Below the pieces are notes generated by a model, which did no database searches, had not been told where the DNA came from, and saw nothing but the letters and a program-made list of their open reading frames with translations. From a bacterium (GTDB taxonomy: Bacteria > Hinthialibacterota > Hinthialibacteria > Hinthialibacterales > Hinthialibacteraceae), in NCBI GenBank assembly GCA_963662285.2, contig CAXXMV010000008.1:512001-576000 (forward strand): a stretch of DNA of 64,000 nt, given 5' to 3'. This document shows, piece after piece, positions 1 to 54,203 of this stretch. Numbering within the stretch: position 1 is the first letter of the stretch; the number at the start of each line of letters is the position of its first letter. Position numbers and translations under genes: made by a program.

Positions 1-1871
1 CCGGTGACATAGGCGTATTTGCCGTCAGGCGTTATAACCACATCGGTGGGATCGGCGAATCCGTTATCCAGTTCATCCAGGGGCAGTTGATCGACGCGGC
101 CGTCTTTCCAAAGAACGCCCAGAGTATTGGTCATAACCCATCCCTGGATAACGCGGGTCATGGGAACCAGGTTTTTGGTGCGCACCATAGTAACCAGAGC
201 GAACTCACCATCTGGAGAACAATCGACGCCCTGCACCAGATTAGCCTCGGGAATTACGATGCGCGTATCTATGAAATCGCGTTTGGTTTCGATAACGGTA
301 ACTTCGGAACGGCATGGTTCGCGGAATTTGACGAAATGAGAGAGGTTGTTGGTTACATAAACCGACTCACCATCCGATGAGCGCGAAACGCCCCAGGCGC
401 CCCGTGCGGCGGAAAGCCGTTTGGCCTCTTGGCCTTTTTGGATATCAACGATTGACACGTCATCAGAACCAGCGTTGGCGACGTATAAGCGCGTACCCTC
501 CAGGTTAGTGGTCATTTGGTGGGGTTCATCGCCAACCGGGATTGTTTTGATGATGGCAAAGGATTGAGAGTCAATCACCGACACAGTATCGGCGCCCCGG
601 TTGCTGACAAAAACCTGTGATTGATCAGGCGACAGGCAGACTCCATGAGGCAGGTTTTCAACCTGAATTTCCGCAATGCGTTGGCCGCTGGCAGCTTCTA
701 CAACAATTAGACTATCAGAGGCTTCGCAAGCAATATATAGCCGCTCCCCATCGCGGGACACGGCTATATTAAAAGGGGTTTTATATTCTATCCCCGCTGA
801 AGCAGTCTTATCCTTCTTCTTGAAATGCTCAATTTTCTTTACAGCTTTTTCATAGTCGAATGGTTTGCCATCAACCTCTTTGGGATGGCAGCGCAGACAA
901 GTTTCACGGTTCACTTTCCATAAACCTGATTCACGCGAGGCGATGGGATCAAGCATGACCGCTTCGAGCATATATTCACTGCCAGGACCATGACAACTCT
1001 CACATTGAACGCCTTGAGCAACATCGAAGGATTCAGTAAACCATCCCGCCTGCTCGCCATGTCCGGTGGAATGGCATTTCAAGCATTGTTCAGCTTGTTG
1101 GGGATTTCCCTCAATGCCTCTTTTCTTAGCGATTTCCTTGGCTTTTTGAGTCCCTAGCACAGCAAAGGCTTTGGAATGACTGGAGAGACGCCATTTACTG
1201 ACGGCGTAGCCCATCATCGCACCCCGGTGACACTCAGCGCATGACATGGCGCCGACATATTTAGGACCGTCAATTAATTTTTTGGGCTTTTTAGGTTCTT
1301 CAGGAATAGGACCGCCCTTGCCGCTGTGAGCAATCTCGCCCAGAGCCATCTTGTAATCGAATTTCTTGACTTTCAAAACCGCCAGATGCGAACCTTTATC
1401 TTTATGGCAGATCATACAATCCTGCTCGGTGGGCATCTTCAGACCAGCCATCATGGCGGCATTGGGATTTCGCATAACATCCAGTTCGGCGTACTCGCTG
1501 CCCGATCCATGACATAATTCGCATTGCACGCCATCCTGTATATGAAAGGTTTCATCCAGTTCCCAGTCTTCGACATTGGACGCAGTGGCATGGCAACCCA
1601 GGCAGACCGGACTATCAAATGGGTTGTCAGCAATACCCGATAGTTTGGCGATTTCTTGTGATTCCGGCATGGCTAAAACCGCATAGGCGTTGGCATGTTT
1701 GGTTAAACGCCACTTATTATACTGGTCGCGCTGACCTGCATTATGATGACAGGCGCGGCATTTCTGCTCGCCAATATAGACGCGATCCGCCGCCCATGAG
1801 TCCAGCGAAGCGCTGATAGATATCATGACTAAAAGCCCGGCAGCCAGAAGCCCCTTCTTGTATCCCAACAT
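1..1871 (-). CDS. Secreted octaheme cytochrome c (two tandem cytochrome c554-like tetraheme modules) fused to a YVTN/HzsB-like beta-propeller; 3' part runs off the window
   Basis: Manual translation from ATG 1871 (MLGYKKGLLAAGLLVMISISASLDSWAADRVYIGEQKCRACH...) is open to base 1. Eight CxxCH motifs: CRACH, CLGCH, CELCH, CMICH, CAECH, CLKCH, CESCH, CLRCH. These are followed by repeats such as LYVANAGSDDVSIVD and VFVSNRGADTVSVID. Absent from the ORF track because its stop lies outside the window. Confidence 0.92.
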   Translation of the reverse strand, partial: MLGYKKGLLAAGLLVMISISASLDSWAADRVYIGEQKCRACHHNAGQRDQYNKWRLTKHANAYAVLAMPESQEIAKLSGIADNPFDSPVCLGCHATASNVEDWELDETFHIQDGVQCELCHGSGSEYAELDVMRNPNAAMMAGLKMPTEQDCMICHKDKGSHLAVLKVKKFDYKMALGEIAHSGKGGPIPEEPKKPKKLIDGPKYVGAMSCAECHRGAMMGYAVSKWRLSSHSKAFAVLGTQKAKEIAKKRGIEGNPQQAEQCLKCHSTGHGEQAGWFTESFDVAQGVQCESCHGPGSEYMLEAVMLDPIASRESGLWKVNRETCLRCHPKEVDGKPFDYEKAVKKIEHFKKKDKTASAGIEYKTPFNIAVSRDGERLYIACEASDSLIVVEAASGQRIAEIQVENLPHGVCLSPDQSQVFVSNRGADTVSVIDSQSFAIIKTIPVGDEPHQMTTNLEGTRLYVANAGSDDVSIVDIQKGQEAKRLSAARGAWGVSRSSDGESVYVTNNLSHFVKFREPCRSEVTVIETKRDFIDTRIVIPEANLVQGVDCSPDGEFALVTMVRTKNLVPMTRVIQGWVMTNTLGVLWKDGRVDQLPLDELDNGFADPTDVVITPDGKYAYVT

Positions 1872-1887
1872 TACTTTTCCTCCAAAT

Positions 1888-3531
1888 TCAGGACTTAGGT
1901 TCTTTCACTTTTAATATCTGGTTGGCGGTGACGTCTGTCAAAGTCTGTTTTATACCGCCCGGCCAGGATATCTCGACTTTGTCGGCTTTTTTATGACTAC
2001 TCAATCCGAAATGGGCGCGGTAATCGCTTTGCGACAAATAACCCGAACTGCTCAAAATATCGCGCGTCTGGGTCAGATCGCCGATGGTCACGCGAATCCG
2101 GGCGCCGATGGCGTCGCGGTTGCATTGGGTTCCTTCCAGGGCGATCATCAACCAGTTATTCTTGTTCCCGCCGTCATTACGCAGCAAGCGGGGGCGGTTG
2201 TTGATATTTAGAATCAATGCGTCCAAATCTCCATCATTGTCAATATCACCGGTAGCCGAACCCCGGCTGACGAATTTCTCCTGGAAGTCCTTGCCGCATT
2301 TTGAGGAGATATCGATGAACTTACGGCCCTGATCATTCCAGAAGATGACGTCTTCCTCCGGTTCGAGATGATGGGCGTCGCCATTCACGATCAGTATATC
2401 GATATACTGGTCGCAATCATAATCAAAAAAGTTGCCCGACCAGCTGACATATTGTCCTAAAACCGAGGCCAAACCCATCTGGGCGCTCATTTCCTCGTAT
2501 AAACCATCACCAGTATTGAGGTATAAACAGCCATAACCCATATCCGGTACCAGTAGATCAAGCAGTCCGTCAAGGTTGAAATCGCCGAACTCCGGCCCCA
2601 TGGCTGAGGTGGCTTCGCCGCTCTGCCCGAATCCTGTAGCGGTTAACATGGCGATATTGGTGAAGGTTCCATCACCGTTATTCTGGTACATATAATTTTC
2701 CATGGCATCATTGGCCACGAAAATATCTATATCGCCATCATTATCAATGTCGCAGGTGGTCACTCCCATAGCCCGGCCTTCGGGATTAAGAACGCCTGCT
2801 TTTTCGGTAACTTCTTCAAAGGTTCCATCGCCCTTGTTGTGATACAGAATATCCGGCTGGCCTTTGTATGACAGCGGTCCGGGAAAAGCATCTGCGGCAT
2901 AGTAATATTTATATTCGGGATCGTATTCTACATAGTTGCCTACATAAAGATCAAGCAGGCCATCTTCGTCATAATCGAAGAATGAGGCGCCTAATCCCCA
3001 CAAGTCATTCTCGACGCCTGCCGCTTTGGTTTTATCGGTGAAGGTTCCATCGCCGTTGTTTTGATAGAGTACATTGGGGCCGTAATTGGTAACAAAGAGA
3101 TCAGCGTCGCCGTCATTGTCATAATCAGCGGAGACGCAGGCCATGCCATAACCTTTATGACCAACGCCGGCTGCTTCAGTCACATCGGTGAAGGTTCCAT
3201 CGCCGTTATTACGATATAGGGCATTTTGTAACTTGTCGGCCAGTTTCCGGCCTCTGGGGTGGCTGACAATTTTATTGTATTGTTCATTGATCAGGTAGAT
3301 ATCAAGATCGTCGTCTCCATCGTAATCGAAGAATGCGCAACCCGCTCCCGTCGATTCGACTATATTGCTCATGTCGGGATCGCCCATGTTGTGTTGAAAC
3401 GTGATGCCCGCTTTTTGGGTGATATCAACCATTTGGGGACAGAGGTCCGGTTGCCCGCCAATATTCACCGGCGAAATTAATGTAATAATGGAAATAGAAA
3501 AAACGGCGCAATAAAACAAATGCTGCTTCAT
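1888..3531 (-). CDS. CRTAC1 family protein (FG-GAP/VCBS repeats + ASPIC/UnbV domain)
   Basis: Signal peptide; repeated DYDxDGDxD Ca-binding motifs and NxLYxNNGDGTFTDVT; C-terminal NRDAIGARI...GYLSQ...AHFGL...VEISWPGG typical of ASPIC/UnbV. Confidence 0.92.
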   Translation of the reverse strand: MKQHLFYCAVFSISIITLISPVNIGGQPDLCPQMVDITQKAGITFQHNMGDPDMSNIVESTGAGCAFFDYDGDDDLDIYLINEQYNKIVSHPRGRKLADKLQNALYRNNGDGTFTDVTEAAGVGHKGYGMACVSADYDNDGDADLFVTNYGPNVLYQNNGDGTFTDKTKAAGVENDLWGLGASFFDYDEDGLLDLYVGNYVEYDPEYKYYYAADAFPGPLSYKGQPDILYHNKGDGTFEEVTEKAGVLNPEGRAMGVTTCDIDNDGDIDIFVANDAMENYMYQNNGDGTFTNIAMLTATGFGQSGEATSAMGPEFGDFNLDGLLDLLVPDMGYGCLYLNTGDGLYEEMSAQMGLASVLGQYVSWSGNFFDYDCDQYIDILIVNGDAHHLEPEEDVIFWNDQGRKFIDISSKCGKDFQEKFVSRGSATGDIDNDGDLDALILNINNRPRLLRNDGGNKNNWLMIALEGTQCNRDAIGARIRVTIGDLTQTRDILSSSGYLSQSDYRAHFGLSSHKKADKVEISWPGGIKQTLTDVTANQILKVKEPKS

Positions 3532-3585
3532 ATTTGCTCCCCGAAAGAAATGCTATAACTCAATGATAATAAGATTATCGCTATC

Positions 3586-3850
3586 AACCCTCTCCTAACC
3601 TCTCCCAGTCTTGGGAGAGGAATCCTTTGCCACCCAAGCGTAGGGTGGGTCGCGCTTCACTGACCCACCAAAGATGCACCTTGTTATCTCTCAAAATCCC
3701 TCTCTATAGAAATTTTTATACGTAATGGGATTCATTCTATCCTATTTGATACACCGGCTAGAAGCCGATGCTCCCCACTCTATGATTCTCCCCGTTTCAT
3801 TCTCCTCTCCTGAGTTGTGTCCGGAGAGGAAACCAGGGGGAGAGGGGATT
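3586..3850. repeat. Intergenic cluster of REP-like palindromes: C-rich hairpin 3586-3621, GTAG-type REP 3640-3670, ACCGGCTAGAAGCCGATGCTCCCC 3753-3776
   Basis: Each unit recurs elsewhere in the window (52216 and 47119; 13567 and 20020; 55782 and 56026). Segment 3700-3850 is a diverged reverse-complement copy of 55711-55860. Confidence 0.8.
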
Positions 3851-3892
3851 TGGTTGCCCGAAATTACCAGGTTGTCAGGTATAGATAAAATC

Positions 3893-5860
3893 TTAATTTT
3901 CATTTACAGCAGGCAATCCACCAATATCGTACAAAGCGCCCAGGTCAATCCACTCAATTAACAATGCCTTCTCCAGAGCAGTAAGAGATTGCTTGGGCGG
4001 CATTTGAATATCAGACGGATTAAGCGAATCATCTAAAAACGTGACATGCTCACCTATAACATACTTAATCAATGGACTCTTGCGGGCGCTGCCGGGAACT
4101 ACATAAGATAAATGATCTTCATCAGAGGCGTTCGACAGAAGACTCTCATAAACCGTAAGCATTGATTTTTTACTATTGGAAAATGATGAGAGTTTGTCAA
4201 CATCCAATTCAGGTTTAACGCCGCCTGCGGCATGGCAATCAGTTCCAGAACATCTGGCTTGCAGGATGGGCTTTATCTGATTGACGAAATCAACCGTTCT
4301 ACGGCGCTGTGGCGGCAGAGTGAGTTTCCTGGCTGTCTTGGCCAAGGCCTGCACCAGGCGGTTGGGCGGCGCCAGTTCGCGGTCTTCATGACACCCGATG
4401 CAGCCGCGCCATTCACGCGGCATTACATAGGTCCAGCTGCGCTGTTCAGCTACAGAAAGACCGTGCTCATCCAGCAACTGAAAGCGTACTGGAATATGAG
4501 AAGGAATTTCTATATGAAATGATCCATCCGCTTCGACTGGAACAACCCCCAGTATGCGCTGCGGAGTTGAAGCGTCTATCCGGGGGGGCGCCTGGTTATT
4601 ATCGTTTTCACTTAACAACGGCAAGCCTTCGATGACTCGCATCCGTTTAACTGTTCCCGGCGCAAGTTCTTTAATCTTTGGAAACTGGCTCTCATATACA
4701 TTCAAGCAGAAGAAGACTCCGGTATCCTTCTCTAGATTAACCACCGATGAACGGCCTTTGACTTTGGCGTGCGGCGCCAGAACCTGGGCGTCAACGCAAT
4801 GCCAGTTTTCGGCTGAATAGAGTTGCTTAATCCGCTGGCCGTTGCCGGGATTTATCTGATAAAGGCTGAAGCATTGCTGCGGATCATTTTTTCTGTATGA
4901 GGCGATCAATCCACCATCCGGCGTTGCGCATGGACTATGGAACAGGCCGCCATTTTCATGACTCAGCGTCTGATAAGAATGAAGCGGGCGACGCAATGTC
5001 ACATAAGCCAGGTCGCCGCCGCCCAGCCATAGCGTTGGATCAGATGCAATCATATAAGCGCGTCCGGCGCTGTCGGCGATATGAACCATATCCAGATAAA
5101 GGGTGGAGGAATGATCCACAAAATAGGGCAGCATATCGGCGCCATCATTATTTATCGCCATCAATCCGTAGCCGCTGGATTTCTTCCAACTGGAATATAC
5201 CAAACGCCCGTTGGGCAAGACGTCAGGGGAGAAATCTGAACTGAGGTTATAGGTAATCCGGGTGGAATGGCTGCCATCAAGTTGAGCGGAATATATTGAA
5301 AAGCATGATCCCGAACCGGATTCATTAATCCAACCTGATTCGGAACTGAGGTATGCAATCTGATCAGTAGGCAAAGCGTCGTTGAGATGAAAAAGAGAAC
5401 CGACGTATAAAGGCGACACGCAATCACCCTTAGAATGCGTCAGTCGGGTTTTTGCGCCGCCATCATGATTCATACGCCAAATCTGCCAGGCGTCGCCTTG
5501 ATTCTTCTTACCTGCAAACAGGATTTGTTGACCATCAAAGGAGACGGCAGGATCGCAGGCTGAGAAAAACTCAGGAGTGAGCACAACCAGTTTTTCCGGT
5601 GGATCAGTGGCTTGATGACAAACAATGCGCATACCATCCACATAGCGGTCGTCGGGTAAATAGAAAGATTTTTGATAAGGAGAAGATTGCGCTGGAATCT
5701 GAACAAAAATCAAATCAGAGCCTTGCGCCGAGTCAGCTATGCTGCAACCCCACACCAGGATCAAAACATAAACCAACCATAGAGGAAAAACCCGCCGTAC
5801 TATTCTATCCGCCCGATGATCCGGGATCAAATAGAGCGCATCAGTTAGCATCCTGTTCAT
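3893..5860 (-). CDS. Hydrazine synthase alpha-subunit-like protein (TolB-like propeller + HZS-alpha middle domain + c-type heme domains)
   Basis: DPAVSFDGQQILFAG propeller; RILGVVPVEADGSFHIEIP...FQLLDEHG...WTYVMPREWRGCIGCHE matches the HZS_alpha middle domain with CxxCH; C-terminal planctomycete-cytochrome-like FVNQIKPILQARCSGTDCH...MPP...EWIDLGA. Confidence 0.85.
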   Translation of the reverse strand: MNRMLTDALYLIPDHRADRIVRRVFPLWLVYVLILVWGCSIADSAQGSDLIFVQIPAQSSPYQKSFYLPDDRYVDGMRIVCHQATDPPEKLVVLTPEFFSACDPAVSFDGQQILFAGKKNQGDAWQIWRMNHDGGAKTRLTHSKGDCVSPLYVGSLFHLNDALPTDQIAYLSSESGWINESGSGSCFSIYSAQLDGSHSTRITYNLSSDFSPDVLPNGRLVYSSWKKSSGYGLMAINNDGADMLPYFVDHSSTLYLDMVHIADSAGRAYMIASDPTLWLGGGDLAYVTLRRPLHSYQTLSHENGGLFHSPCATPDGGLIASYRKNDPQQCFSLYQINPGNGQRIKQLYSAENWHCVDAQVLAPHAKVKGRSSVVNLEKDTGVFFCLNVYESQFPKIKELAPGTVKRMRVIEGLPLLSENDNNQAPPRIDASTPQRILGVVPVEADGSFHIEIPSHIPVRFQLLDEHGLSVAEQRSWTYVMPREWRGCIGCHEDRELAPPNRLVQALAKTARKLTLPPQRRRTVDFVNQIKPILQARCSGTDCHAAGGVKPELDVDKLSSFSNSKKSMLTVYESLLSNASDEDHLSYVVPGSARKSPLIKYVIGEHVTFLDDSLNPSDIQMPPKQSLTALEKALLIEWIDLGALYDIGGLPAVNEN

Positions 5861-5887
5861 AATTTATCAGTTATTCTAACAATACAA

Positions 5888-7021
5888 TTATTTAGATAAT
5901 ATTGCCGTTGCATCCAGTTCGTATAACAGTTCGTCGCGACATACATCAGCCAAAGTGCAAACCACAGGTATCTTATCCAAACCCATGCGGCTGGCGATAG
6001 AGTAGTACATCTCAACATCCTGAGGCCGTTTTACAAACGAAGTAGCCTGACATATATCATCGAGTCCAGCGCCGCCTACTTCTAAAAGGGCTTGTACATT
6101 TTCCAGAGTTCGCACCGTTTGCCGTTCAAAATCCCCTTCAAAAACGCTTACGCCCTTTTCATCAATAGCCGCAGTACCTGAAACAAATATATATTGACAA
6201 GAGTCAGTCTCCACCGATAAAGCGCGGGCGAAGGCTGAACCATATTCCGGCGCCTCGTTCTGCTTTGGGTTAATCAACCGCTTCGCTTCAAAGGTCTGAC
6301 CATCAATAGGCTTCATAGCCAACAGATCAAGAGTGCACCAACCGCCATCAGCATTTCGCCCCTGGATGCCAGTGCTGGCGGGAATGGAACTGAGGGGATT
6401 GCCATTAAACAGCCCCATTCGCTTGAAAGCATCATTACGGACTAGATTAAACTCATCATACCAGTCCAGAATATTATGCAGATAAAACCAGGTACGCCGG
6501 ACATCATTAAATTTCCATTTTTGTTTATCTAAAATATGCTCGATTAATTCAAAGGTTCTGCTGGTCTCTTCGCCAGGTGATTGCCCCCCGGTTTCACGCA
6601 CCAGGCGTCCGACATCAGACAGAGTCAAATAACGGGCGTCATTACCTGTAACAATGCGGCCGCAAGCCTCGCCTTGCCATTCCAGCAGAGTGGATTCCGG
6701 TTGGTTTTTACCTTGCAAAGCTACAGCATGAATCCCGGCTACGCCTGAACCGCTGAACGGCGTACCTTCAACAAAAGTCGGCGGGATATCTGATTTAACG
6801 CCTTTCTCATCAAAAATCCGTTTACGCTCTTGCAGGATAGTATAAGATGATTTGCTTTCACCATATATACGTTCATGCAACAATATAGTTTGCTGATATT
6901 GAAGATAATCCGCTATTTTTCCAAAGCCTTGAGCAACAATATCGTCTATCGAATGATCAGTCGAGTCAGGAATCCAGGAAAGAAAAATCAGATCGCCTGG
7001 ACCATCAGTTGAAAAGAACAT
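5888..7021 (-). CDS. Two-domain RidA/YjgF (Rid superfamily, FkbO/Hyg5-like) protein
   Basis: RTWFYL...FNLVR...PASTGI and FARA...IFVSGTAAID...QTVRTLENV...ADVCRDELLYELDA. AAGGAG RBS precedes ATG 7021; the ORF track starts at GTG 7033. Confidence 0.8.
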   Translation of the reverse strand: MFFSTDGPGDLIFLSWIPDSTDHSIDDIVAQGFGKIADYLQYQQTILLHERIYGESKSSYTILQERKRIFDEKGVKSDIPPTFVEGTPFSGSGVAGIHAVALQGKNQPESTLLEWQGEACGRIVTGNDARYLTLSDVGRLVRETGGQSPGEETSRTFELIEHILDKQKWKFNDVRRTWFYLHNILDWYDEFNLVRNDAFKRMGLFNGNPLSSIPASTGIQGRNADGGWCTLDLLAMKPIDGQTFEAKRLINPKQNEAPEYGSAFARALSVETDSCQYIFVSGTAAIDEKGVSVFEGDFERQTVRTLENVQALLEVGGAGLDDICQATSFVKRPQDVEMYYSIASRMGLDKIPVVCTLADVCRDELLYELDATAILSK

Positions 7022-7381
7022 AAAATACCCCACTCCTTAAATTCAAATAATTCAACCGATTACTGCCCAGTAACACCGGTTGAATCCTCCCAAAAAGTAC
7101 AAATAGCGATAGCGATCTTCGCATAACGCCGAACCAAATCAACTTATTTTATCGAATATCTTCAGCAGCTTCAAGAGAAGGGGGAACTAATCATAGTTAA
7201 GTGCATAATCGAAACAATGAAAGTATGCCTTTGGGTGATAGCGTAAAGGATGTCATAACAGGTAATTCGGGTAATTAACCGTTAATATAGCAATTTTTCC
7301 TTGAGATACACTTCAGATTACAGAAGTACCCTCTAGAATAGCCCTTGGATCACCTAATGAAGAATAAAAGGTTTGATAATC

Positions 7382-9359: not shown

Positions 9360-11852
9360 TTATCGGAACAATTCCCAATTTTCATAGGATGATGCAGGTA
9401 GATTATCCGAATATGTCAGTATTTCTTTACCTGTATAATAACCAAAGAGATACTCAGCATAGAATTTCCACTCCACTTCATCATCATCCGAAGATACCTG
9501 ATAAAAAGCAAAATTGCCATATTCACGGTCGCCATTTTCAGTCATCAATAGACTCGATAATAGACCGACTGTTTCCTCGGTTACGTTAAATAATGCTTCA
9601 ACCGACTGTTCTGCATCAGGAGCGGACGGCCAACCCATGTCTTCCATCATCAAGACATACATCCATAAGCATTCATAGGCTGCAACATCAAAGGCCCGCG
9701 GCTCATTATCAATGTGCGTAGCGATATCGTTGATAACAACACAGGGTGGAAGGCTTAAATGGTGCGTCTGGTCCACTCCAATTATGGAGGCGGTAAACCG
9801 TAGTTGACTGGCAATCTCCGCAGATTCCGGGTTTTCTAAAATACCGTTATTGAGCGCAGTGGAATCAGTCCCAAACCAGCGGAACTTATTCAAAGAAGAG
9901 TTATCGGGAATAGCAGAGAAAATGTCTGCTATTTCATCATAAGCAATAACAACAATAGCTGTTTTCATGATATTCTGGTTCTGGATGTTATTCTTGAGTT
10001 GATCTACAACGGGGGAGAAATCCGTCGTTCCGATATCATACGAGATGCTTTCGCCAAATTGTCCGCCTAGTTCTTCAAACGCCGTTTTCAAGTTGGAATA
10101 TAAACCTGATCCATAAGTATCATTGCGGTATAGCGCATTGATCTTTGAGTATCCCTGATCTTTAATCAACGCCGCAATCGCTGTGACCTGTTTGTAGTCG
10201 TTCATTACCAGGCGGAAAATGTTATCCTTTTTTGATAGCGTAGTGGCAGTACTGGAAGGAGAAAGAAGCATTATTCCATTTTCCTCAACAAAAGGAGCAA
10301 CTTTTTCCAAAGCGGAACTGGTTACAGGGCCAATGAAATAACGAATGCCCTGGGCGTACATTTCCTGCATCTTTTGCAAGGCCGTATCAGGATCAGTCGC
10401 AGTATCTTCAACCACCAGTTCAACGCTTGAACCGGGCGTATGAACGCGCTTAAAAATTTCGTTAACATGAAGGCTAGCCAATTCCAATGATTTATTGATC
10501 AATTGTCCACCTTCCGCATAATCACCGGATAGAGGCATCAAAGCGCCAATTTTAAGGTATTTATCCAGATTGTCTGGAATATATATCTCGCTGGAGAATT
10601 TCTCACGAACAATGTTGCCGCCAAATAGATAGCAAGAATAGGAACCGGCCGGGGTCCATTTTTGATCTTCTAAATATTGATAAAATCCATATATGGCATT
10701 TATAGAGTCGCCATTTTGATCGAAAAATGGATAACCTTTAAATCCCATAAAAATTGTGGATATTCGAATCAGTTCATTTTTCAAATCATAAGTTCCCTCG
10801 AACTGAGAAATCCCAGCCATCCAGAGTGCATCATAAGAAGCGGATTCGAGAGAAGTCATTTGATAATTAGTTTTTGATATGATCTTGGAATATAAGAGTT
10901 CATCGGTTAATGAATAATGAAAGAAGGGGTAAAACCGCGCGTCAGATGTAGACATTGAGGCCGTAAATTCGACCTGCGCGGCAAAAGCAGAAGCGATGTC
11001 ATCTTGACTAATGATTTCATTCCTGGCAGTTCCATCAGCTCCAAACCAACGAACAGCTTTGAGAATATCTTGGCTGGAAGCGGCTTTAAGTATTTCTGCT
11101 ACCTCATCAAATGAAACAACAACGATTCCTACCTTGGCTTCAGCATTTTCCTGTTGAATAGTATCAACTACATTTGTAAGTTGAGCAATCAAAGTTTGAT
11201 AATCAGTAGTTTGCACATCATAAAAAATCGGTTCTGATAGAGTACCTATTTCTGCGTAACTTGATTGAAACGCAGCGGCGAAGTCCTGACCATAATTATC
11301 ATTTCGCGAAATAAGGACGATATGATCGACATCTTCGGACTGAATAAACTTGGCTAAAGCAACTGACTGCAGGCTATCGTTTGTGCAAAGCCTGAAAATG
11401 TTATCATCCAGCGCCAGAGAGAGCGCCGTGCTGGTTGGTGATATCAAAACGCAGTTATTCTCATCCGCAAACGGTTTGACGCGCAACAGCGCTTCACTCG
11501 AAAAAGGACCTACAAATATTCGGAATCCTGCCTGATATAAAGATTGCAATTTGGTTAATGCAGTTTCCGGGTCTGTACCAGTATCTTCAATTACCAAATT
11601 AATGTGAACCTTTGGATACTCACGCTCAAAGTCTTCCAGTGCAACTTCCAATGTGGCTTTTGCAGCATTCCCTAAATTAACGAGAGAACCTGTTAATGGT
11701 ACTAAAGCGCCGATTGATAGCGTTGTTTCTCCTGGTGGAGCGGGAAAAACGACTTGAGAATTACTCGCGCCCGGTAATCCGATTAAAACGGTAAGCAGAA
11801 TCGGTAAAAAAAGCATACCCATTCTATTGTTCCATCTGCTGCATAAATTCAT
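9360..11852 (-). CDS. Secreted protein with two tandem LivJ-type (type I) solute-binding domains and C-terminal NWELFR motif
   Basis: Duplicated IGALxPL(T/S)G...EDTxTDPxTAL...GPxxS...SPxSTA...IFRLxxND...RNDxYG...RWFGxD units; signal peptide. Confidence 0.88.
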   Translation of the reverse strand: MNLCSRWNNRMGMLFLPILLTVLIGLPGASNSQVVFPAPPGETTLSIGALVPLTGSLVNLGNAAKATLEVALEDFEREYPKVHINLVIEDTGTDPETALTKLQSLYQAGFRIFVGPFSSEALLRVKPFADENNCVLISPTSTALSLALDDNIFRLCTNDSLQSVALAKFIQSEDVDHIVLISRNDNYGQDFAAAFQSSYAEIGTLSEPIFYDVQTTDYQTLIAQLTNVVDTIQQENAEAKVGIVVVSFDEVAEILKAASSQDILKAVRWFGADGTARNEIISQDDIASAFAAQVEFTASMSTSDARFYPFFHYSLTDELLYSKIISKTNYQMTSLESASYDALWMAGISQFEGTYDLKNELIRISTIFMGFKGYPFFDQNGDSINAIYGFYQYLEDQKWTPAGSYSCYLFGGNIVREKFSSEIYIPDNLDKYLKIGALMPLSGDYAEGGQLINKSLELASLHVNEIFKRVHTPGSSVELVVEDTATDPDTALQKMQEMYAQGIRYFIGPVTSSALEKVAPFVEENGIMLLSPSSTATTLSKKDNIFRLVMNDYKQVTAIAALIKDQGYSKINALYRNDTYGSGLYSNLKTAFEELGGQFGESISYDIGTTDFSPVVDQLKNNIQNQNIMKTAIVVIAYDEIADIFSAIPDNSSLNKFRWFGTDSTALNNGILENPESAEIASQLRFTASIIGVDQTHHLSLPPCVVINDIATHIDNEPRAFDVAAYECLWMYVLMMEDMGWPSAPDAEQSVEALFNVTEETVGLLSSLLMTENGDREYGNFAFYQVSSDDDEVEWKFYAEYLFGYYTGKEILTYSDNLPASSYENWELFR

Positions 11853-17980: not shown

Positions 17981-18137
17981 TTTTATAACCAGTTCCCCGT
18001 TCTTTAAGAAAAAGCGTTTTATGCATTGAAAAAGGCGCTTTTCTTTTCTATCATAACTTTTCAAGAAAAAAACTTGATAAAGGTTGCTTTCTGATTCATG
18101 AACTGTTTGTAAAAATAAGCATAAGAAGATTTTTAAT

Positions 18138-19876
18138 ATGTTTCCTAAACGTGATTTAATTATTTTTTTTTTATTTCTTGCTTTTTATTATCTATAAGGT
18201 TTCTTCTTGTTCAGCCGGAAAAATTTCTCTGGGATATTTATTACACTCGAATGGCGCTAAATCCCTATTGGGGAGAGGGAGCGCCATGGGGTAGCAGAAT
18301 CTTAACTTCCTATCTTGTTTATTTATGTCCCATTAGCACCTCTCTTGCTTTCTATATTGTAAATCTTATATCCTTGCTTTTATCTACTATTGTATTAATG
18401 CTTCTTTGCAAAGATCTGGGGATGCGCAACGGATTACCGATTGCCGCAGCCGCATCATACTTATTTTCTTCCGGTGTGGAATGGCAAATTAAAGAGATAT
18501 GGTTTAATGATGCAATAAGTCATTTATTTTTAGTATTAATGATTTACTCTATGCTTAAAAAATATGATGCATGGGTGTGTCTTTTTTCTTTATTAGGAGC
18601 CTTAAATAGAACAACGGCGCTATATTTTCTCCCTGTTTGGTATATATACCGTTTTGGTTGGTCAATACACTTAAGAAATATTCGCTATCTTATCTTTGTT
18701 TGGAGTCCACCAGTTATCATAACAATATTGATACATGCTTTATGGTTTCCTCTTACTAGTTATTCATGTATCAAGAATATTGGCGGATTTGTGAGTAATT
18801 ACAATTTCTTTGAGTTTTATTTTGAGGATTTTTTTCTACATACTTCTTCATTCAACGATTTTGTAGATAGAATTTTCTCTCTTAATTTGGCCAATAACTT
18901 TTTTGGTATTTTGTTGCCACTGTTTTTAGTGGCAGTTTTTCGCCTTAAAAATCATTATAAAATCCTATCAATTTGGATAGTGATTGTATGGCTACAATTT
19001 TTTGTAGCTAGAGATGTCGGACGTTTGGAAACATATGCTTTCCCTGCAATGATCCCAATCTCGCTTCTTTATGTCGCTCAATCAATACAATCTGCAACCT
19101 ACCAAAAAATTACAGCGCTAGTGATAATTGTGCTTTCGATTTTTTTACCGATATCTTGTTTTTTCATAATGGGCTGCATAATATCTGCGTTTGTGTTCTA
19201 CATTGGAGAAAATAGGATTAACATATTAACTGTTTCTCTTGATATAGAAAAAGAACAAATAACCTCAAACCAGAACAATTATTTTTTGATACATATTCCA
19301 TGTATTTTGATGTTTCTGACTTTTGTTTGGTTTGGCGCTTTTTGTATGGAGACATACACATTGCGTCCAAGACCAATTTTTGGTTATCCACAATCATTGA
19401 TTAACCAGCAAAATAAAAGCATGACTCTTGGAGTTGCTGATTCAAAAGGAAATTTAAGGAGCATTCATAATTACTCCAACAAAAACACAAATGATTTATC
19501 GATGATTACTATCAGTGAATCTTATGAACAAATAATTATTCCTTTGGAGGATATGGAAAAAACAGATGCTAAACTTACTTTTCTACTAAAAATGTGGGGA
19601 ACAATTGAATTGGGGAACAGATTATATGTTGATCTAGGATTTGTGGATGGAAAAGAATTGATTCCCACCTTCAACCAATTCTCACAAATTTCTTCTAATT
19701 ATAGTATTAATCATTTCTCACAGTTATTCTTTCTTTATCGCTTAAAGAACGAGAATTGCTTAATAATCGGTCGCGATAACACTTGGAAAGGGAGATTTCA
19801 ATTTATGCTCTTTGATGTCACCCATATAACAAGAAAAACAAAAGAGTCTCCTATAAAAATCAAGGTAACGTTTTAG
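18138..19876 (+). pseudogene. AT-rich polytopic membrane protein (GT-C glycosyltransferase-like), frameshifted in a T10 run; alternatively translated from ATG 18251
   Basis: About 10 hydrophobic segments. The ATG 18138 frame stops at 18195-18197; the main frame is open from 18155. One extra T in 18163-18172 joins them and restores TM1 and a WDIYYTRMALNP loop. Confidence 0.6.
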
Positions 19877-19903
19877 TCTTCTGAAAAAATAAATTACACT
19901 GAG

Positions 19904-20204
19904 CCGGGCGCCAAGGACAAAACCCCCTTGCGTCCAGCCGGATGTTGATATTCCAGGCGCCAAGGTCAGTGTATTTTCAGCCCTTGATCAAGCCACCAAA
20001 GAAAACAATCCACCGCCGCGTAGGGTGGGTCGGCCTCATCGACCCACCAAAAATCCACCTCAACAAACAAACCATTCTCGACTAACCACTGAAAAAAAAC
20101 CTCGAATCATCACGACGCGCCTGATATTCCGAGCGCCCATAAAAAGCGCCCCTACAAAAAATCCACCTACAATAAAAAGTAGGGGCAATCCTTTATGGTT
20201 GCCC
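19904..20204. repeat. Intergenic mosaic of three REP-like families
   Basis: GGCGCCAAGG family at 19904 and 19953-19997; GTAGGGTGGGTC family at 20020-20049; GTAGGGGC-family inverted pair at 20131-20155 and 20179-20204. Confidence 0.75.
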
Positions 20205-20275: not shown

Positions 20276-21757
20276 CTAAGCATCCGAATGCAGCAGACGC
20301 TTTAAGTGGCGCCCCGCCAGGAATTTGAAGGTATGCCAGGTGTGTCTGGGGCGGAGAATTAGGCGTTTGAATTGGCGGAAATCCTTGAATGGGCGAATAG
20401 TTTTATGCCAGTCCCACTCGTTGTACGCCATGCGTAAAGCGCGTTCCAGGTCTTCGCCGCTGAGGGCGTCCGTCCTGACAACAGCGGTGGTTCCGCCATC
20501 GTATTTCGACCAGTCGTGAGTTAGCAACTTGCCTTCTTCCTCCAACATCCGGTAGAAAGTCGAACCGGGGAATGGAGTCATGATGGAGAATTGGATGGTT
20601 TCGGGATTAAGGCGTTTGGCGAAATCAATGGTTTGACGCACGGTTTCCCAGGTCTCGCCGGGAAGCCCGAAACTGAAGGTCAAATGCTGGTTGATGCCCA
20701 ACTCGCGGGTGGCGCAGACCATCTCTTCCACTATTTTGAGGTCAAGACCCTTCTTGGCGTTATCGACCAGTTGCTGCGAACCTGATTCAACGCCGTACTT
20801 GATGCCAACCAGACCAGCGTCCTTCATAGCCGCCAGGGTTTCACGGTCAGTGGTATCAGCGCGCGCCATGGCAGCCCAGGGCAGATTGAGGTTGCGCTTC
20901 TTGATCTCATCGCAAAGCGCCAGTAGACGTTTCTTGCCAATGTTGAATGTGTCATCATCAAAATAGAACGAACGGAAGCCGTATTTTTCCACCATGGCTT
21001 CGATCTCGTCGACTACGTCTTTAGGATCGCGGGTGCGGTAGCGGTTGTTGCCATACATTATCTGCGGCCATGCGCAAAAGATGCACTGGAACGGGCAGCC
21101 CCGCGAAGCCCACATCTGCAAACTCGGTTCGGGAATCCCGCCAGGTAAATCCCAATAGCTGTGCATGGGAAGCTGGTCGCGCGAAGGCCAGGGGATGGTA
21201 TCCAAATCATCAATCAGTTCGCCGCGCTCCGTCTGATGAGCGACGCCTTGATCATCGCGATAAACCAGGTTTGGTATTGTTGAATAATCGCTGTTGGATT
21301 CGATGGCTTGGATTAATTGATGTAGAACAAAATCATATTCACCCTTGAGGACAAAATCCACCAGGGGATTCTCGTCCAGAAACTGGGTACGATACATGTC
21401 GACATGGATGCCGCAAAATATGATACGCGTATCAGGGCAAGTGTCTTTGATTTTCTGCGCCTGACGTAGGTCCGTATCGAATGAAGCGGTAGAGATTTCC
21501 AAAACTGTAATGTCCGGCTTAAAATCAATAGCGCGTTGGATAAAATCAGCTTCGCATATTCTCTCGGCTATGCCATCTACTAAACAGCAATCATAACCGG
21601 ACTTCTCCAGAATTGCGGTTGCGTAAGCCAAATAGAAAGGAAATGGAAGATAACGGGCGCCCTCTTCTTCAAAATGCGGCCAGCGCGAACCTGCGCGTAC
21701 GCCATAGTAACCTTTTTTAAACCAAGGGCCATTGCCAAGAAAAATTTTAATAGACAT
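20276..21757 (-). CDS. B12-binding domain radical SAM protein (HpnJ-like)
   Basis: RAGSRWP N-terminus; SRGCPFQCIFC; FYFDDDTF; GVESGSQ; GLPGET; PFPGS. Confidence 0.88.
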   Translation of the reverse strand: MSIKIFLGNGPWFKKGYYGVRAGSRWPHFEEEGARYLPFPFYLAYATAILEKSGYDCCLVDGIAERICEADFIQRAIDFKPDITVLEISTASFDTDLRQAQKIKDTCPDTRIIFCGIHVDMYRTQFLDENPLVDFVLKGEYDFVLHQLIQAIESNSDYSTIPNLVYRDDQGVAHQTERGELIDDLDTIPWPSRDQLPMHSYWDLPGGIPEPSLQMWASRGCPFQCIFCAWPQIMYGNNRYRTRDPKDVVDEIEAMVEKYGFRSFYFDDDTFNIGKKRLLALCDEIKKRNLNLPWAAMARADTTDRETLAAMKDAGLVGIKYGVESGSQQLVDNAKKGLDLKIVEEMVCATRELGINQHLTFSFGLPGETWETVRQTIDFAKRLNPETIQFSIMTPFPGSTFYRMLEEEGKLLTHDWSKYDGGTTAVVRTDALSGEDLERALRMAYNEWDWHKTIRPFKDFRQFKRLILRPRHTWHTFKFLAGRHLKRLLHSDA

Positions 21758-37918: not shown

Positions 37919-39016
37919 TCAGGGCGTTAAAGCCAGATGGCAGTTGGCGCAAGTGGGGATTTCGTCGATCCGTCCACTGGCATGCAAGTCACGCAGTTTT
38001 TGATATTCCGGGCCAGTCCAGATTTCTTCAACCGACTTGCCGTGAATATTGCCCACCGTCAATGTTCGAGCGGAATCAACGCAACATACCGTCACCACGC
38101 CATCGGGATGCACAAACATACGCTGCCATAATTGAGGACAACAGAATTTCTTTTTATTATTATTCTCTGTTTCATCCTTAGCTGTATTGATCGAATCAGC
38201 TGATTTATCTTCGGCGCCGGCCTGGCTGTTGTGTTCAATATAATCGACCCATGCTACTGCATCGACAATTGGTTCGAAGAGTTGTTTGAAATCTTCCCAC
38301 TCCTGATCATTCTCTTTCATGCGCACCATTGAGATGCGGGTAAATGGTTTGTTGGTTCCCATTTCGTCGCGGATTTCATGGAAACGCTTGATGTTTCTAA
38401 GGACTTTATCGTAATTGGCGTTGACCCGGATTTTGTTGTAATGATCCCTATAGGGAGAATCAAAAGAAAAGAAGAGTTTATCCAAACCTGCTTCAATTAA
38501 CTTACGTGAACTTTTTTCGGTTAACAGGGTGGCGTTGGTATTGAACATTACATCTACCAAGCCTTTTTCTTTAGCGTAACGGATCATATCAATAAGTAGT
38601 GGATTCATCATTGGTTCGCCGAGATAATTGAATTTAAGCGAACAAAGTCCGTTTTCCGCCCCTTCATCTATCAAGCGCTTGAATAATATAAAGTTAGTGT
38701 TTTTAACTTCCCAGAATTTCCCGTCATTTAACATGTCGGTACGCGGGCACATGGTGCAACGCAGGTTGCAATTGGATGTGGCTTCGACATCAAGATGCAC
38801 CGGGAACTTGCCTACATGATGAGTTATGGGATTATTTTCCCATTTTTCACGGTATTCCCAGTACTCTGGAGGTAGACTCTCTTCCCATTGCTTGGTTTTA
38901 TCGCTTTTTATCTGATGATAATTATGATCAACTTTGGTTTCCACGTTCGGAGTTTGAGCAGCGTCTTGTTCTAAGGTATTTGAATCTGTCATTAACTTTC
39001 CTCGCAATCGTCTCAT
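37919..39016 (-). CDS. Radical SAM/SPASM domain protein
   Basis: CNLRCTMC, GEP, NTNA; SPASM/twitch CPQLW...DGVVTVCC...GNI...CANC. Confidence 0.92.
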   Translation of the reverse strand: MRRLRGKLMTDSNTLEQDAAQTPNVETKVDHNYHQIKSDKTKQWEESLPPEYWEYREKWENNPITHHVGKFPVHLDVEATSNCNLRCTMCPRTDMLNDGKFWEVKNTNFILFKRLIDEGAENGLCSLKFNYLGEPMMNPLLIDMIRYAKEKGLVDVMFNTNATLLTEKSSRKLIEAGLDKLFFSFDSPYRDHYNKIRVNANYDKVLRNIKRFHEIRDEMGTNKPFTRISMVRMKENDQEWEDFKQLFEPIVDAVAWVDYIEHNSQAGAEDKSADSINTAKDETENNNKKKFCCPQLWQRMFVHPDGVVTVCCVDSARTLTVGNIHGKSVEEIWTGPEYQKLRDLHASGRIDEIPTCANCHLALTP

Positions 39017-47087: not shown

Positions 47088-47145
47088 GAGTTAGAGGGGG
47101 GTTGCGTTTCAAAGAATCAACCCCCACCTAACCTCCCCCAGGCTT

Positions 47146-48652
47146 TGTAAAGGCCTGGGACATGGGTAACAGGTGTTCGGGGACATAGGTAACACATTCC
47201 CTGAGTGTATTCTAGCCTTGAAAGGAGGCGAAGAATATGCCCTGGAACGAGGTGGACCTTATGTCTCTGAGAAAAGAATTCGTATTGTTGAGCCAGCAAG
47301 AAGAAAGCAACATCAGCCAATTATGTAAACGGTTTGATATCAGCCGTAAGACGGGTTACAAATGGATCAAACGGTACAAAGAAGGAGGAGGCGAAAATCT
47401 CCAAGACCGTTCCAAAAAACCCAATACTTGCCCTCATCAAACAGATAAGTCTATCGAGCAAGCCATTACAGAAAATCGCGAAAAAGGATGGGGAGGACGC
47501 AAAATTCGCTCTCGTCTGATTCAATTGGGATACGAAAATGTTCCTAGCGCCAGCACTATTACTGCCGTGTTACGCCGACTGGGATTGCTGGATGAAAAGG
47601 AAAGTCACAAGCACAAAGCCTATAAGCGTTTTGAAAAAGATACGCCCAACGAATTGTGGCAAATGGATTTCAAAGGAGATTTTCCCACGCTCAAAGCACG
47701 CTGTTATCCGCTCAGCATTCTGGATGATTGCACGCGCTTTGTTCCCGGATTATTTTCGTGCGCCAATCAGCAAAGGGAAACCGTGCAAGACTCCCTGGAA
47801 AGCGTGTTCAGGATGTATGGTATGCCTCGGGCGATGTTGATGGATAACGGAAGTCCGTGGGGAGGATGCAAAACCTGCGAATACACCAGATTGACAATAT
47901 GGCTGATACGATTGGGTATTCGCGTGTATCACGGTCGCCCCTACCATCCGCAAACCCAAGGCAAGGTCGAGCGATTTCACCGGACCTTTAAGCAAGAATT
48001 GCTGATAAGGGAATCGTTTGTGGATTTGGAATATTGCCAAAGGCGGTTTGATGAGTGGCGTTATGAATACAATTTTGAGCGTCCTCACGAAGCCCTGGAT
48101 ATGGATGTCCCGGCTAACCATTATACGTCCAGTCCTTTTGTTTATCCGGGAAGTTTGCCGGATATCGAGTACGCGCCGGGCAGCATTATCAGGAAGGTGC
48201 AACAAGGAGGTCGGGTGGCGTACCGTGGTGAAGATTACCGGGTGAGCCGCGCCCTGGTAGGATGCCCGGTTGCCTTGAAACCCGCTATGACCGATGGGAT
48301 GATGGACGTATATTTTTGCCGACAAAAAATCAAGACGCTCGATCTGCGTTTGAATGAAATCAAAGAAGATAACTTGGCAATCCAGAAAAAGGCGTCACAA
48401 TAGAAATTGGTTGGGCGAAACGGAAGCGGGCGCTGCAGGAGTGCAACCCGCCAGGGATAGCCGATCCGAGGTGCGAGGGATAATGCAGGAGGTGAAATAT
48501 TCACCTCCTCCCTCTAAGCCAACCAATTATCCTGAGCATCTCTAGATGCCTAAAAAAAAACTCAAACAATAACCTGGGATAAATCCCGGTTTTGATAAAA
48601 AACTGTAACCCATGTCCCCGAACATGTGTTACCCATCTACCCGGTCTGTACA
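47146..48652 (+). mobile_element. IS481-family insertion sequence, copy 1 (1507 bp)
   Basis: TGT...ACA ends; subterminal GGGACAT(G/A)GGTAACA repeats inverted at the right end; 5-bp target duplication GGCTT (47141-47145 and 48653-48657). Confidence 0.95.
47237..48403 (+). CDS. IS481-family DDE transposase
   Basis: MPW N-terminus, HTH ISRKTGYKW, LWQMDFKG, DNGSPW, PQTQGKVERFHRT, YNFERPHEAL. Confidence 0.96.
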   Translation: MPWNEVDLMSLRKEFVLLSQQEESNISQLCKRFDISRKTGYKWIKRYKEGGGENLQDRSKKPNTCPHQTDKSIEQAITENREKGWGGRKIRSRLIQLGYENVPSASTITAVLRRLGLLDEKESHKHKAYKRFEKDTPNELWQMDFKGDFPTLKARCYPLSILDDCTRFVPGLFSCANQQRETVQDSLESVFRMYGMPRAMLMDNGSPWGGCKTCEYTRLTIWLIRLGIRVYHGRPYHPQTQGKVERFHRTFKQELLIRESFVDLEYCQRRFDEWRYEYNFERPHEALDMDVPANHYTSSPFVYPGSLPDIEYAPGSIIRKVQQGGRVAYRGEDYRVSRALVGCPVALKPAMTDGMMDVYFCRQKIKTLDLRLNEIKEDNLAIQKKASQ

Positions 48653-54154: not shown

Positions 54155-54203
54155 TAATGAGTGAGGGCGGAGGCTTTTGGTTACTCCCCCTCACCCTTTC
54201 CCT

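Follow-up and report, generated by a model that had tools for sequence, protein, structure and literature searches.

A probable clade I hydrazine-synthase-homologue operon with a built-in octahaem module in a 64-kb bacterial window

The window analysed here is a stretch of 64,000 nucleotides of contig CAXXMV010000008.1 (positions 512,001 to 576,000), and its left end contains a gene cluster related to the hydrazine synthase (HZS) of anammox bacteria. Open reading frame (ORF) calling places four co-oriented genes, all on the minus strand, between positions 1 and 7033. The gaps between them are 27 bp (5861-5887), 361 bp (3532-3892) and 16 bp (1872-1887). A preliminary description of the same DNA had proposed four co-oriented genes with 27-bp and 16-bp gaps, encoding a RidA/FkbO-like protein, an HzsA-like protein, a CRTAC1/ASPIC protein and an octahaem plus propeller protein; the ORF coordinates agree with this layout and the Pfam and NCBIfam matches agree with the four identities. 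The end at 7021 given in that description is an in-frame ATG at residue 5 of gene 1. The features of the locus are:

5888-7033, minus strand: gene 1 (P0001), a chorismatase-fold (RidA/FkbO-like) protein of 381 amino acids (aa) with a GTG start
3893-5860, minus strand: gene 2 (P0002), an HzsA-like dihaem protein of 655 aa
1888-3531, minus strand: gene 3 (P0003), a secreted CRTAC1/ASPIC-like propeller of 547 aa
3-1871, minus strand: gene 4 (P0004), an octahaem plus propeller protein of 623 aa, open at the left window edge
822-1871, minus strand: signal peptide and octahaem module of gene 4 (residues 1-350 of P0004 and of the matching database protein P0005), with two c554-like tetrahaem units and eight CXXCH motifs
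1-821, minus strand: first ~270 residues of the HzsB-like seven-bladed propeller of gene 4 (P0005 residues 351-623), from profile and PDB matches
left of base 1, minus strand: remainder of the propeller, followed by an HzsC-like dihaem domain (P0005 residues 624-951), from the database protein
3532-3892, minus strand: long spacer between genes 2 and 3 with three palindromic hairpins (REP-like), from a palindrome search and folding
7034-7372, no strand: divergent intergenic region shared with a plus-strand FKBP-type isomerase gene, presumed to be the promoter region of the operon

Gene 2 encodes a protein (P0002) with an N-terminal hydrophobic anchor or signal, a TolB-like propeller, an HZS_alpha middle domain and a C-terminal domain. 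The Pfam family HZS_alpha (PF18582) is matched with 85.5 bits (cut-off 26.6), while the NCBIfam model hydrazine_alpha gives 164.2 bits, which is below its equivalog cut-off of 800. The only significant PDB sequence match is HzsA (5c2v_A), with an E value of 6e-40 for the single protein and 5.6e-87 for a 28-sequence profile of the family. This match consists of four collinear stretches over the propeller, middle and C-terminal domains and takes in residues 29-769 of 5c2v_A. The AlphaFold2 model of P0002, with a mean predicted local distance difference test (pLDDT) of 75.7, has the same chain as its top fold match (5C2V_A, E 1.3e-36, TMq 0.71), followed by TolB (E 2e-9), which is matched over the propeller only. 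The three-domain alpha architecture of hydrazine synthase is present in P0002.

The protein has two haem motifs. The CIGCH motif in the HZS_alpha domain (nt 4388-4402) is aligned with that of haem alpha-I in HzsA. The second motif, CSGTDCH, is a CX4CH variant in the C-terminal domain (residues 537-543, nt 4232-4252), and its Cys, Cys and His are invariant in all 28 aligned homologues. Among the family ORFs in the loci described below and in the window, the alpha-II motif is of the CX4CH type in 35/66 and a second CXXCH in 28/66. The C-terminal domain of P0002 aligns with residues 636-769 of 5c2v_A, and the alpha-II site and the C-terminal ~100 residues are retained. HZS residue numbers are derived from the PDB chain offsets and from PMC12758564. 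The profile alignment ends at the His of the alpha-I CXXCH, and the next 75 HzsA residues face 21 profile positions; therefore, the equivalent of Tyr591 cannot be placed. At the column of Cys303, P0002 and 20/28 homologues have His. The Tyr ligand of the alpha haem and the Zn site, which the preliminary description had singled out as the features to look for, are therefore not retained, since the Tyr591 segment is unalignable and Cys303 is replaced by His. The column aligned with His772 is Lys in P0002 and His in 7/28 homologues, while a Met lies three residues ahead of it, in an 'MPP' motif, in 21/28. This motif weakly suggests His/Met ligation of haem alpha-II; the suggestion is weak because the Met and the His are found in only these fractions of the homologues.

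The part of gene 4 inside the window contains eight CXXCH motifs and matches Cytochrome_C554 (119 bits in two stretches) as well as YVTN-type propeller models. The octahaem module matches cytochrome c554 itself (1bvb_A) with an E value of 2.7e-9. The full-length protein is P0005, which has 951 aa and is 100% identical over the 623 residues encoded in the window. Its top PDB matches are HzsB (5c2v_B, E 2.7e-43) and HzsC (5c2v_C, E 2.5e-18, residues 716-951). NCBIfam ranks the Scalindua-type fusion model hydrazine_BC first for this protein, with 230.6 bits (cut-off 1250), and the beta (193.9 of 560) and gamma (71.2 of 625) models are also under their cut-offs. Taking all subunits together, the equivalog cut-offs of the hydrazine synthase models (NF052339-NF052342) are missed by about 3- to 9-fold.

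A profile of 26 sequences aligns residues 361-700 with residues 11-348 of the 352 of HzsB in one stretch (191 bits, E 1.6e-55), and the match takes in the helical insertion of blade 6. The generic YVTN surface-layer protein 1L0Q reaches 181 bits against the same profile, but it does so through three overlapping repeats of the same few blades. The end-to-end match to HzsB thus sets the propeller apart from generic YVTN proteins, provided that the off-window sequence is included. The two propeller segments that had earlier been called HzsB-like both occur in the translation and align with 5c2v_B inside a single 94-bit stretch. The co-occurrence of alpha-like and beta-like subunits, proposed at the same time, is confirmed by the HzsA match of P0002, the HzsB match of P0005 and the co-linear loci in other genomes.

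The gamma-like domain that had been expected past the window edge is found fused to the propeller, in residues 716-951 of P0005. It scores 74.8 bits against HzsC and 34.9 bits against the best ordinary dihaem peroxidase, while the Pfam family CCP_MauG (PF03150) is matched with 22.1 bits, below the gathering cut-off of 25.6. The Cys of the off-window motif 'LSRQCGP' aligns with Cys126 of the HzsC chain (Cys165), which forms the third thioether bond to haem gamma-I; the peroxidases 1IQC, 9QDT and 3O5C have Ala at this position. Gamma-His144 falls in a gap of the HzsC alignment, and the neighbouring Trp of 'FKWTG' aligns with the Trp of the peroxidase FWDG motif, which indicates that His144 is not kept. 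All ten haem motifs, the RQCG Cys and the FKWTG Trp are invariant in 26/26 aligned homologues. The mean column identity of the decahaem protein in this alignment is 68% across phyla, and 51 of the 63 beta-gamma ORFs in the loci and the window have exactly ten CXXCH motifs.

The protein of gene 3 (P0003) consists of seven FG-GAP repeats of the Ca-binding type and a UnbV_ASPIC domain (Pfam FG-GAP_3, 183 bits in seven stretches; UnbV_ASPIC, 78.5 bits). By sequence, it matches a single PDB entry, that of cartilage acidic protein 1 (9etn_A, E 1.8e-21). P0002, P0003 and P0004 each start with a hydrophobic signal-like segment.

Gene 1 matches the Pfam family Ribonuc_L-PSP with 60 bits and, weakly, the NCBIfam model for FkbO/Hyg5 (TIGR04444; 46.7 bits, cut-off 325). 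In its AlphaFold2 model (pLDDT 88.3, predicted template modelling score 0.90) the protein has a chorismatase fold, a triple YjgF/RidA-like arrangement, and may act on chorismate. The best fold matches are the chorismatases Hyg5 (5A3K, 5AG3) and FkbO (4BPS), with E values of 1e-18 to 5e-17 and TMt of 0.69-0.74, whereas single-domain RidA proteins match only one lobe of the model (E ~4e-8). The three-lobed YjgF-like fold is common to gene 1 and these chorismatases over the full length, but the identity is 18-20% and the NCBIfam score is below the cut-off. No signal peptide is seen by eye in the translation of gene 1, so the protein is presumably cytoplasmic.

Relatives of this cluster are widespread. 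For P0002 and for the gene 4 protein alike, the 8,000 candidates that were scored include more than 1,400 relatives at E < 1e-3, and the two kinds of relative frequently share a contig. In a collection with a single genome for each species, at least 596 candidate stretches were found, at least 539 of which encode a relative, and the best 80 were kept. The synteny counts given here cover these 80 closest loci (31-55% identical to the query) as a sample of the family, to which the genome of the window itself does not contribute. The record titles of the relatives name Omnitrophota, Acidobacteriota (many of them Bryobacterales), Planctomycetota, Gemmatimonadota, Verrucomicrobiota, Calditrichia, Thermodesulfobacteriota and others. 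A CRTAC1-like gene lies directly downstream of the alpha-like gene in all 67 loci with at least 2 kb of downstream sequence, and is thus linked as tightly as the catalytic subunits. The order alpha-like, CRTAC1-like, octahaem, propeller and dihaem domain is co-linear in 61/61 loci with at least 5.5 kb downstream; the core genes are therefore syntenic in other genomes, and the preliminary description had stated that the lack of such synteny would count against its proposal.

Accessory genes recur beside this core. Of the 68 loci with at least 1.5 kb of upstream sequence, 38 have a same-strand RidA-like gene no more than 2 kb upstream, and 16 of these 38 genes cover more than 250 of the 381 residues of P0001. 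In 9 loci a DAHP synthase gene is located between the RidA-like and alpha-like genes. Downstream of the decahaem gene, where at least 4.2 kb is available, a gene for a Reg_prop propeller of ~380 aa is found in 34/48 loci. Genes for signal-peptide-bearing Peripla_BP_6 binding proteins are also found there, at least one in 42/48 loci and two in 31/48. No permease is among the families shared by the genes around the core in the 80 loci. Accessory genes can be seen in the example loci L001 (12006-15870), L058 (16765-20561) and L003 (3543-4442).

This family has been described recently. The text of Hagglund et al. 2025 (Genome Biol Evol, PMC12758564), as far as available, divides hydrazine-synthase homologues into four clades. 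In clade I the alpha gene is upstream, a CRTAC1/FG-GAP gene is in between, and the beta-gamma fusion has eight extra haem motifs and two c554 domains. That text describes a two-residue gap at Ser590/Tyr591, an unconserved Cys303, the absence of His772 and the loss of the beta-loop Glu, together with retention of gamma-Cys165 and a Trp that replaces gamma-His144. It concludes that clade I proteins cannot make hydrazine, and the function is left open. Examples named are Syntrophobacter fumaroxidans, Paludibaculum fermentans, Aquisphaera giovannonii, Thermogutta terrifontis and Novipirellula artificiosorum. Two binding-protein genes are noted downstream of the cluster, and the gene order is the reverse of hzsCBA. 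An earlier article (PMC10732223), in its available part, mentions 'hzs-like' genes in Phycisphaerae and KSB1 genomes and suggests a broader family with other substrates. The present alignments agree with PMC12758564 on Tyr591, Cys303, gamma-Cys165 and gamma-His144.

The window cluster and clade I have the same gene order (alpha-like, CRTAC1/FG-GAP, beta-gamma fusion), the same eight N-terminal haem motifs in two c554 domains and the same two C-terminal ones, and both keep the two alpha haem sites. The alpha homologue of the clade I member S. fumaroxidans (P0187) is 46% identical to P0002. The window differs from the clade I description in the CX4CH form of its alpha-II motif, in the chorismatase-fold gene 27 bp upstream and in its Omnitrophota/Hinthialibacterota-like host, Omnitrophota being absent from the main text of PMC12758564. 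The terms 'RidA', 'FkbO' and 'chorismatase' are also absent from that main text, although the upstream gene may be drawn in the figures. One supplement file of the article contains none of the terms RidA, L-PSP, chorismatase, Omnitrophota and substrate-binding; the figures lie outside this comparison. The cluster does not represent a new kind of system; it adds a member to a family that was described in December 2025.

The anammox HzsABC used for comparison is that of Kuenenia stuttgartiensis (PDB 5C2V/5C2W), reportedly described by Dietl et al. 2015. The window cluster has in common with it an alpha subunit of three domains that carries a catalytic haem and one for electron transfer, a seven-bladed beta propeller with a blade-6 insertion, and a dihaem gamma domain of the peroxidase fold with a third thioether Cys. 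A beta-gamma fusion is also present in the hydrazine synthase of Scalindua. In contrast to HzsABC, to which identity is 23-24% at the fold level, the cluster has no Tyr591/Zn site and has a Trp in place of gamma-His144. A built-in octahaem wire replaces the separate electron-transfer module, and there is an extra CRTAC1-like gene, a reversed gene order and a range of non-anammox hosts. The gamma-like domain also resembles the dihaem peroxidases, MauG and MbnH in its two c-haems, its inter-haem Trp (the FWDG-like 'FKWTG') and a C-terminal 'PYMHDG'. It differs from the peroxidases in having Arg-Gln-Cys, not Glu/Asp-Gln-Ala, after the Trp segment, in its fusion to a propeller and an octahaem module, and in its weak peroxidase scores.

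The gene cluster is real and encodes a predicted periplasmic twelve-haem enzyme related to anammox hydrazine synthase and, as judged by alignment, every HZS domain can be shown to have a homologue in it. The best explanation, with a probability of roughly three in four, is that the cluster is a clade I hydrazine-synthase-homologue operon, placed there by score ranking and architecture, and that its products form an HZS-like periplasmic complex. The operon would supply three secreted proteins (the alpha-like dihaem protein, the CRTAC1-like calcium propeller and the 951-aa decahaem protein) and a cytoplasmic chorismatase-fold protein. As in hydrazine synthase, the secreted proteins may assemble in the periplasm so that the propeller links two catalytic haems. 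The octahaem module would feed or drain the complex, and electrons could pass from this octahaem wire through haem gamma-II to the catalytic haem gamma-I. A small intermediate would then move past the insertion of the beta-propeller to haem alpha-I, which would be served by haem alpha-II. Within this explanation, the stepwise reduction of a small nitrogen oxide is tentatively put forward as the single most likely chemistry; gamma-I would convert nitric oxide (NO) to hydroxylamine, which alpha-I would then reduce to ammonium. Since the Tyr591/Zn arrangement is missing at alpha-I and a Trp of the peroxidase type is kept in the gamma domain, the product is very probably not hydrazine. The preliminary description, too, had suggested a periplasmic redox complex that is uncharacterised, as opposed to a proven hydrazine synthase, and the available text of PMC12758564 takes the same position.

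Several points weigh against this interpretation. The residues of gene 4 past 623 were taken from the database protein P0005 and lie off the window, and with the window-encoded fragment alone 1L0Q scores higher (147 bits) than HzsB (95 bits); therefore, the HzsB assignment depends on the off-window C-terminus. The literature searched contains no biochemical data on any member of the family, and we infer the HZS-like assembly from homology and synteny. The N-oxide substrate is conjectural, and the gene families shared around the cluster by more than 9 of the 80 loci include no nitrite reductase, nor or hao. The peroxidase-type Trp would fit peroxide or MauG-like chemistry equally well. A NO-reductase model also leaves unexplained the roles of the chorismatase-fold, CRTAC1-like and Reg_prop proteins and of the two substrate-binding proteins.

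The main rival, which is unlikely, is a peroxidase or MauG-like oxidative system. A high-valent haem would be generated in the gamma-like domain by H2O2, or by O2 with electrons supplied by the octahaem wire, and would detoxify peroxide or oxidatively modify a partner. This partner could be the CRTAC1-like or the alpha-like protein, or a small molecule that is derived from chorismate or delivered by a binding protein. The FKWTG Trp, which aligns with the FWDG Trp where HzsC has His144 and is invariant in 26/26 homologues, is consistent with such a system, and there are weak matches to Pfam CCP_MauG and to NCBIfam models of the MbnH/MauG type. The chorismatase-fold gene linked in 38/68 loci, and the DAHP synthase gene linked in 9, may point to a small aromatic compound. 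However, the domain is much closer to HzsC than to the best peroxidase (74.8 against 34.9 bits), and the third thioether Cys is common to HzsC and not to the three peroxidases compared. The HzsA-like subunit and the HzsB-type propeller are also strictly retained, although a peroxidase needs neither.

A true hydrazine synthase, serving a cryptic anammox-type or hydrazine-producing metabolism outside Brocadiia, would account for the homologues of all three HZS subunits in one operon and for the fact that the thioether Cys of gamma-I and the blade-6 insertion of the beta propeller are conserved. This is highly improbable given that the scores are far under the NCBIfam cut-offs (alpha 164/800, beta 194/560, gamma 71/625, BC 231/1250), that the Tyr591 segment after the alpha-I CXXCH is unalignable (21 profile positions against 75 residues) and that both P0002 and 20/28 homologues carry His in place of Cys303. 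The carriers include many heterotrophic phyla, and PMC12758564, in its available text, concludes likewise and gives a gene order that is the reverse of hzsCBA. It is also conceivable that TolB-like propeller, FG-GAP and YVTN/cytochrome proteins adjoin by chance and resemble HZS only in generic folds. Propeller and dihaem folds are common, and a generic YVTN protein outscores HzsB when compared with the fragment in the window. The synteny count contradicts this explanation, since co-linearity holds in 61/61 loci from many phyla; P0002 has no significant PDB match other than HzsA, to which it is similar over its whole length, and two of the three intergenic gaps are only 16 and 27 bp. A chance assembly of unrelated neighbours is therefore extremely improbable.

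A wider reading would take the core and its companions (the chorismatase-fold enzyme, the Reg_prop propeller and the two orphan periplasmic binding proteins) as a single system that carries out a two-site haem reaction on nitrogen compounds in heterotrophs of more than 500 species. Such a system may, for example, form or cleave N-N or N-O bonds, with hydroxylamine and an amine delivered by the binding proteins. This reading is quite unlikely, but if true it would fill in a branch of nitrogen chemistry that is so far missing and lies outside anammox.

The rest of the window is compatible with the sugar and sulfate-ester heterotroph suggested earlier. The sigma-70 protein encoded in the window has 72-62% identity with proteins labelled Omnitrophica/Omnitrophota and 61% with Candidatus Hinthialibacter. 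Among the 39 other ORFs scanned in the window are three sulfatases, a GH127 gene, two GFO/IDH/MocA oxidoreductases and an arylsulfotransferase; none of the 39 is an N-cycle gene, be it hydrazine dehydrogenase or another anammox gene. As far as 64 kb allows, this supports an Omnitrophota/Hinthialibacterota-like, non-anammox heterotroph as the probable host.

The spacer between genes 2 and 3 is unusually long; in related loci, tblastn places its matches to these two genes mostly ~30-190 nt apart. The 361-nt spacer folds better than its shuffles (z = -3.55). One of its palindromes, GGTGGGTC..GACCCACC, recurs at 20020-20048 with the same CGTAG lead. The palindromic element, which consists of CGTAGGGTGGGTC, a loop and GACCCACC, is thus located at 3640-3669 and at 20020-20048, in two intergenic regions, and this suggests a family of the repetitive extragenic palindromic (REP) type. 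The earlier term 'REP-filled spacer' holds in part, with regard to the three palindromes, the stable folding and the recurrence of one of them in the window. Promoter-like matches in the presumed promoter region (7034-7372) are no commoner than in shuffled sequence. Rfam has no match within the 64-kb window.

Other observations concern genes farther from the operon. A gene on the minus strand (9360-11852), upstream of the operon past a divergent FKBP-sulfatase pair, encodes an 830-aa protein with two tandem Peripla_BP_6 domains. The possibility that this protein is a relocated form of the operon-linked binding-protein pair was rejected, as no BLASTP match to the operon-linked binding proteins of related loci was found at E < 1e-8. 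Two IS481-family transposase genes (47145-48403 and 54203-55461, 388 aa each) are in direct orientation with starts 7058 bp apart, and their first 300 nt are 99% identical. They enclose a GFO/IDH/MocA oxidoreductase gene, a URO-D-like gene and a GH127 gene, an arrangement that resembles a composite transposon. The stretch 18001-20000 is AT-rich (GC 0.33, compared with ~0.45 elsewhere), and the 541-aa ORF inside it (18251-19876) has no Pfam or NCBIfam match. On the minus strand, 20276-21757 encodes a B12-binding radical SAM protein that is HpnJ-like (293 bits, under the cut-off), and 37919-39016 encodes a radical SAM/SPASM maturase-like protein. The latter could be a sulfatase or metalloenzyme maturase, and no model reaches its cut-off.

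To our knowledge, hydrazine synthase was for a long time regarded as an enzyme without relatives. To the relatives now known, which are widespread, the window contributes a member from a sulfatase-rich Omnitrophota/Hinthialibacterota-like heterotroph, and the synteny survey shows an invariant three-gene core under strong conservation with recurrent accessory genes beside it, which are concrete handles for experiments. The identity of the substrate would show what hydrazine synthase evolved from, and it could reveal an unrecognised periplasmic nitrogen or peroxide reaction that is common in soils and sediments.

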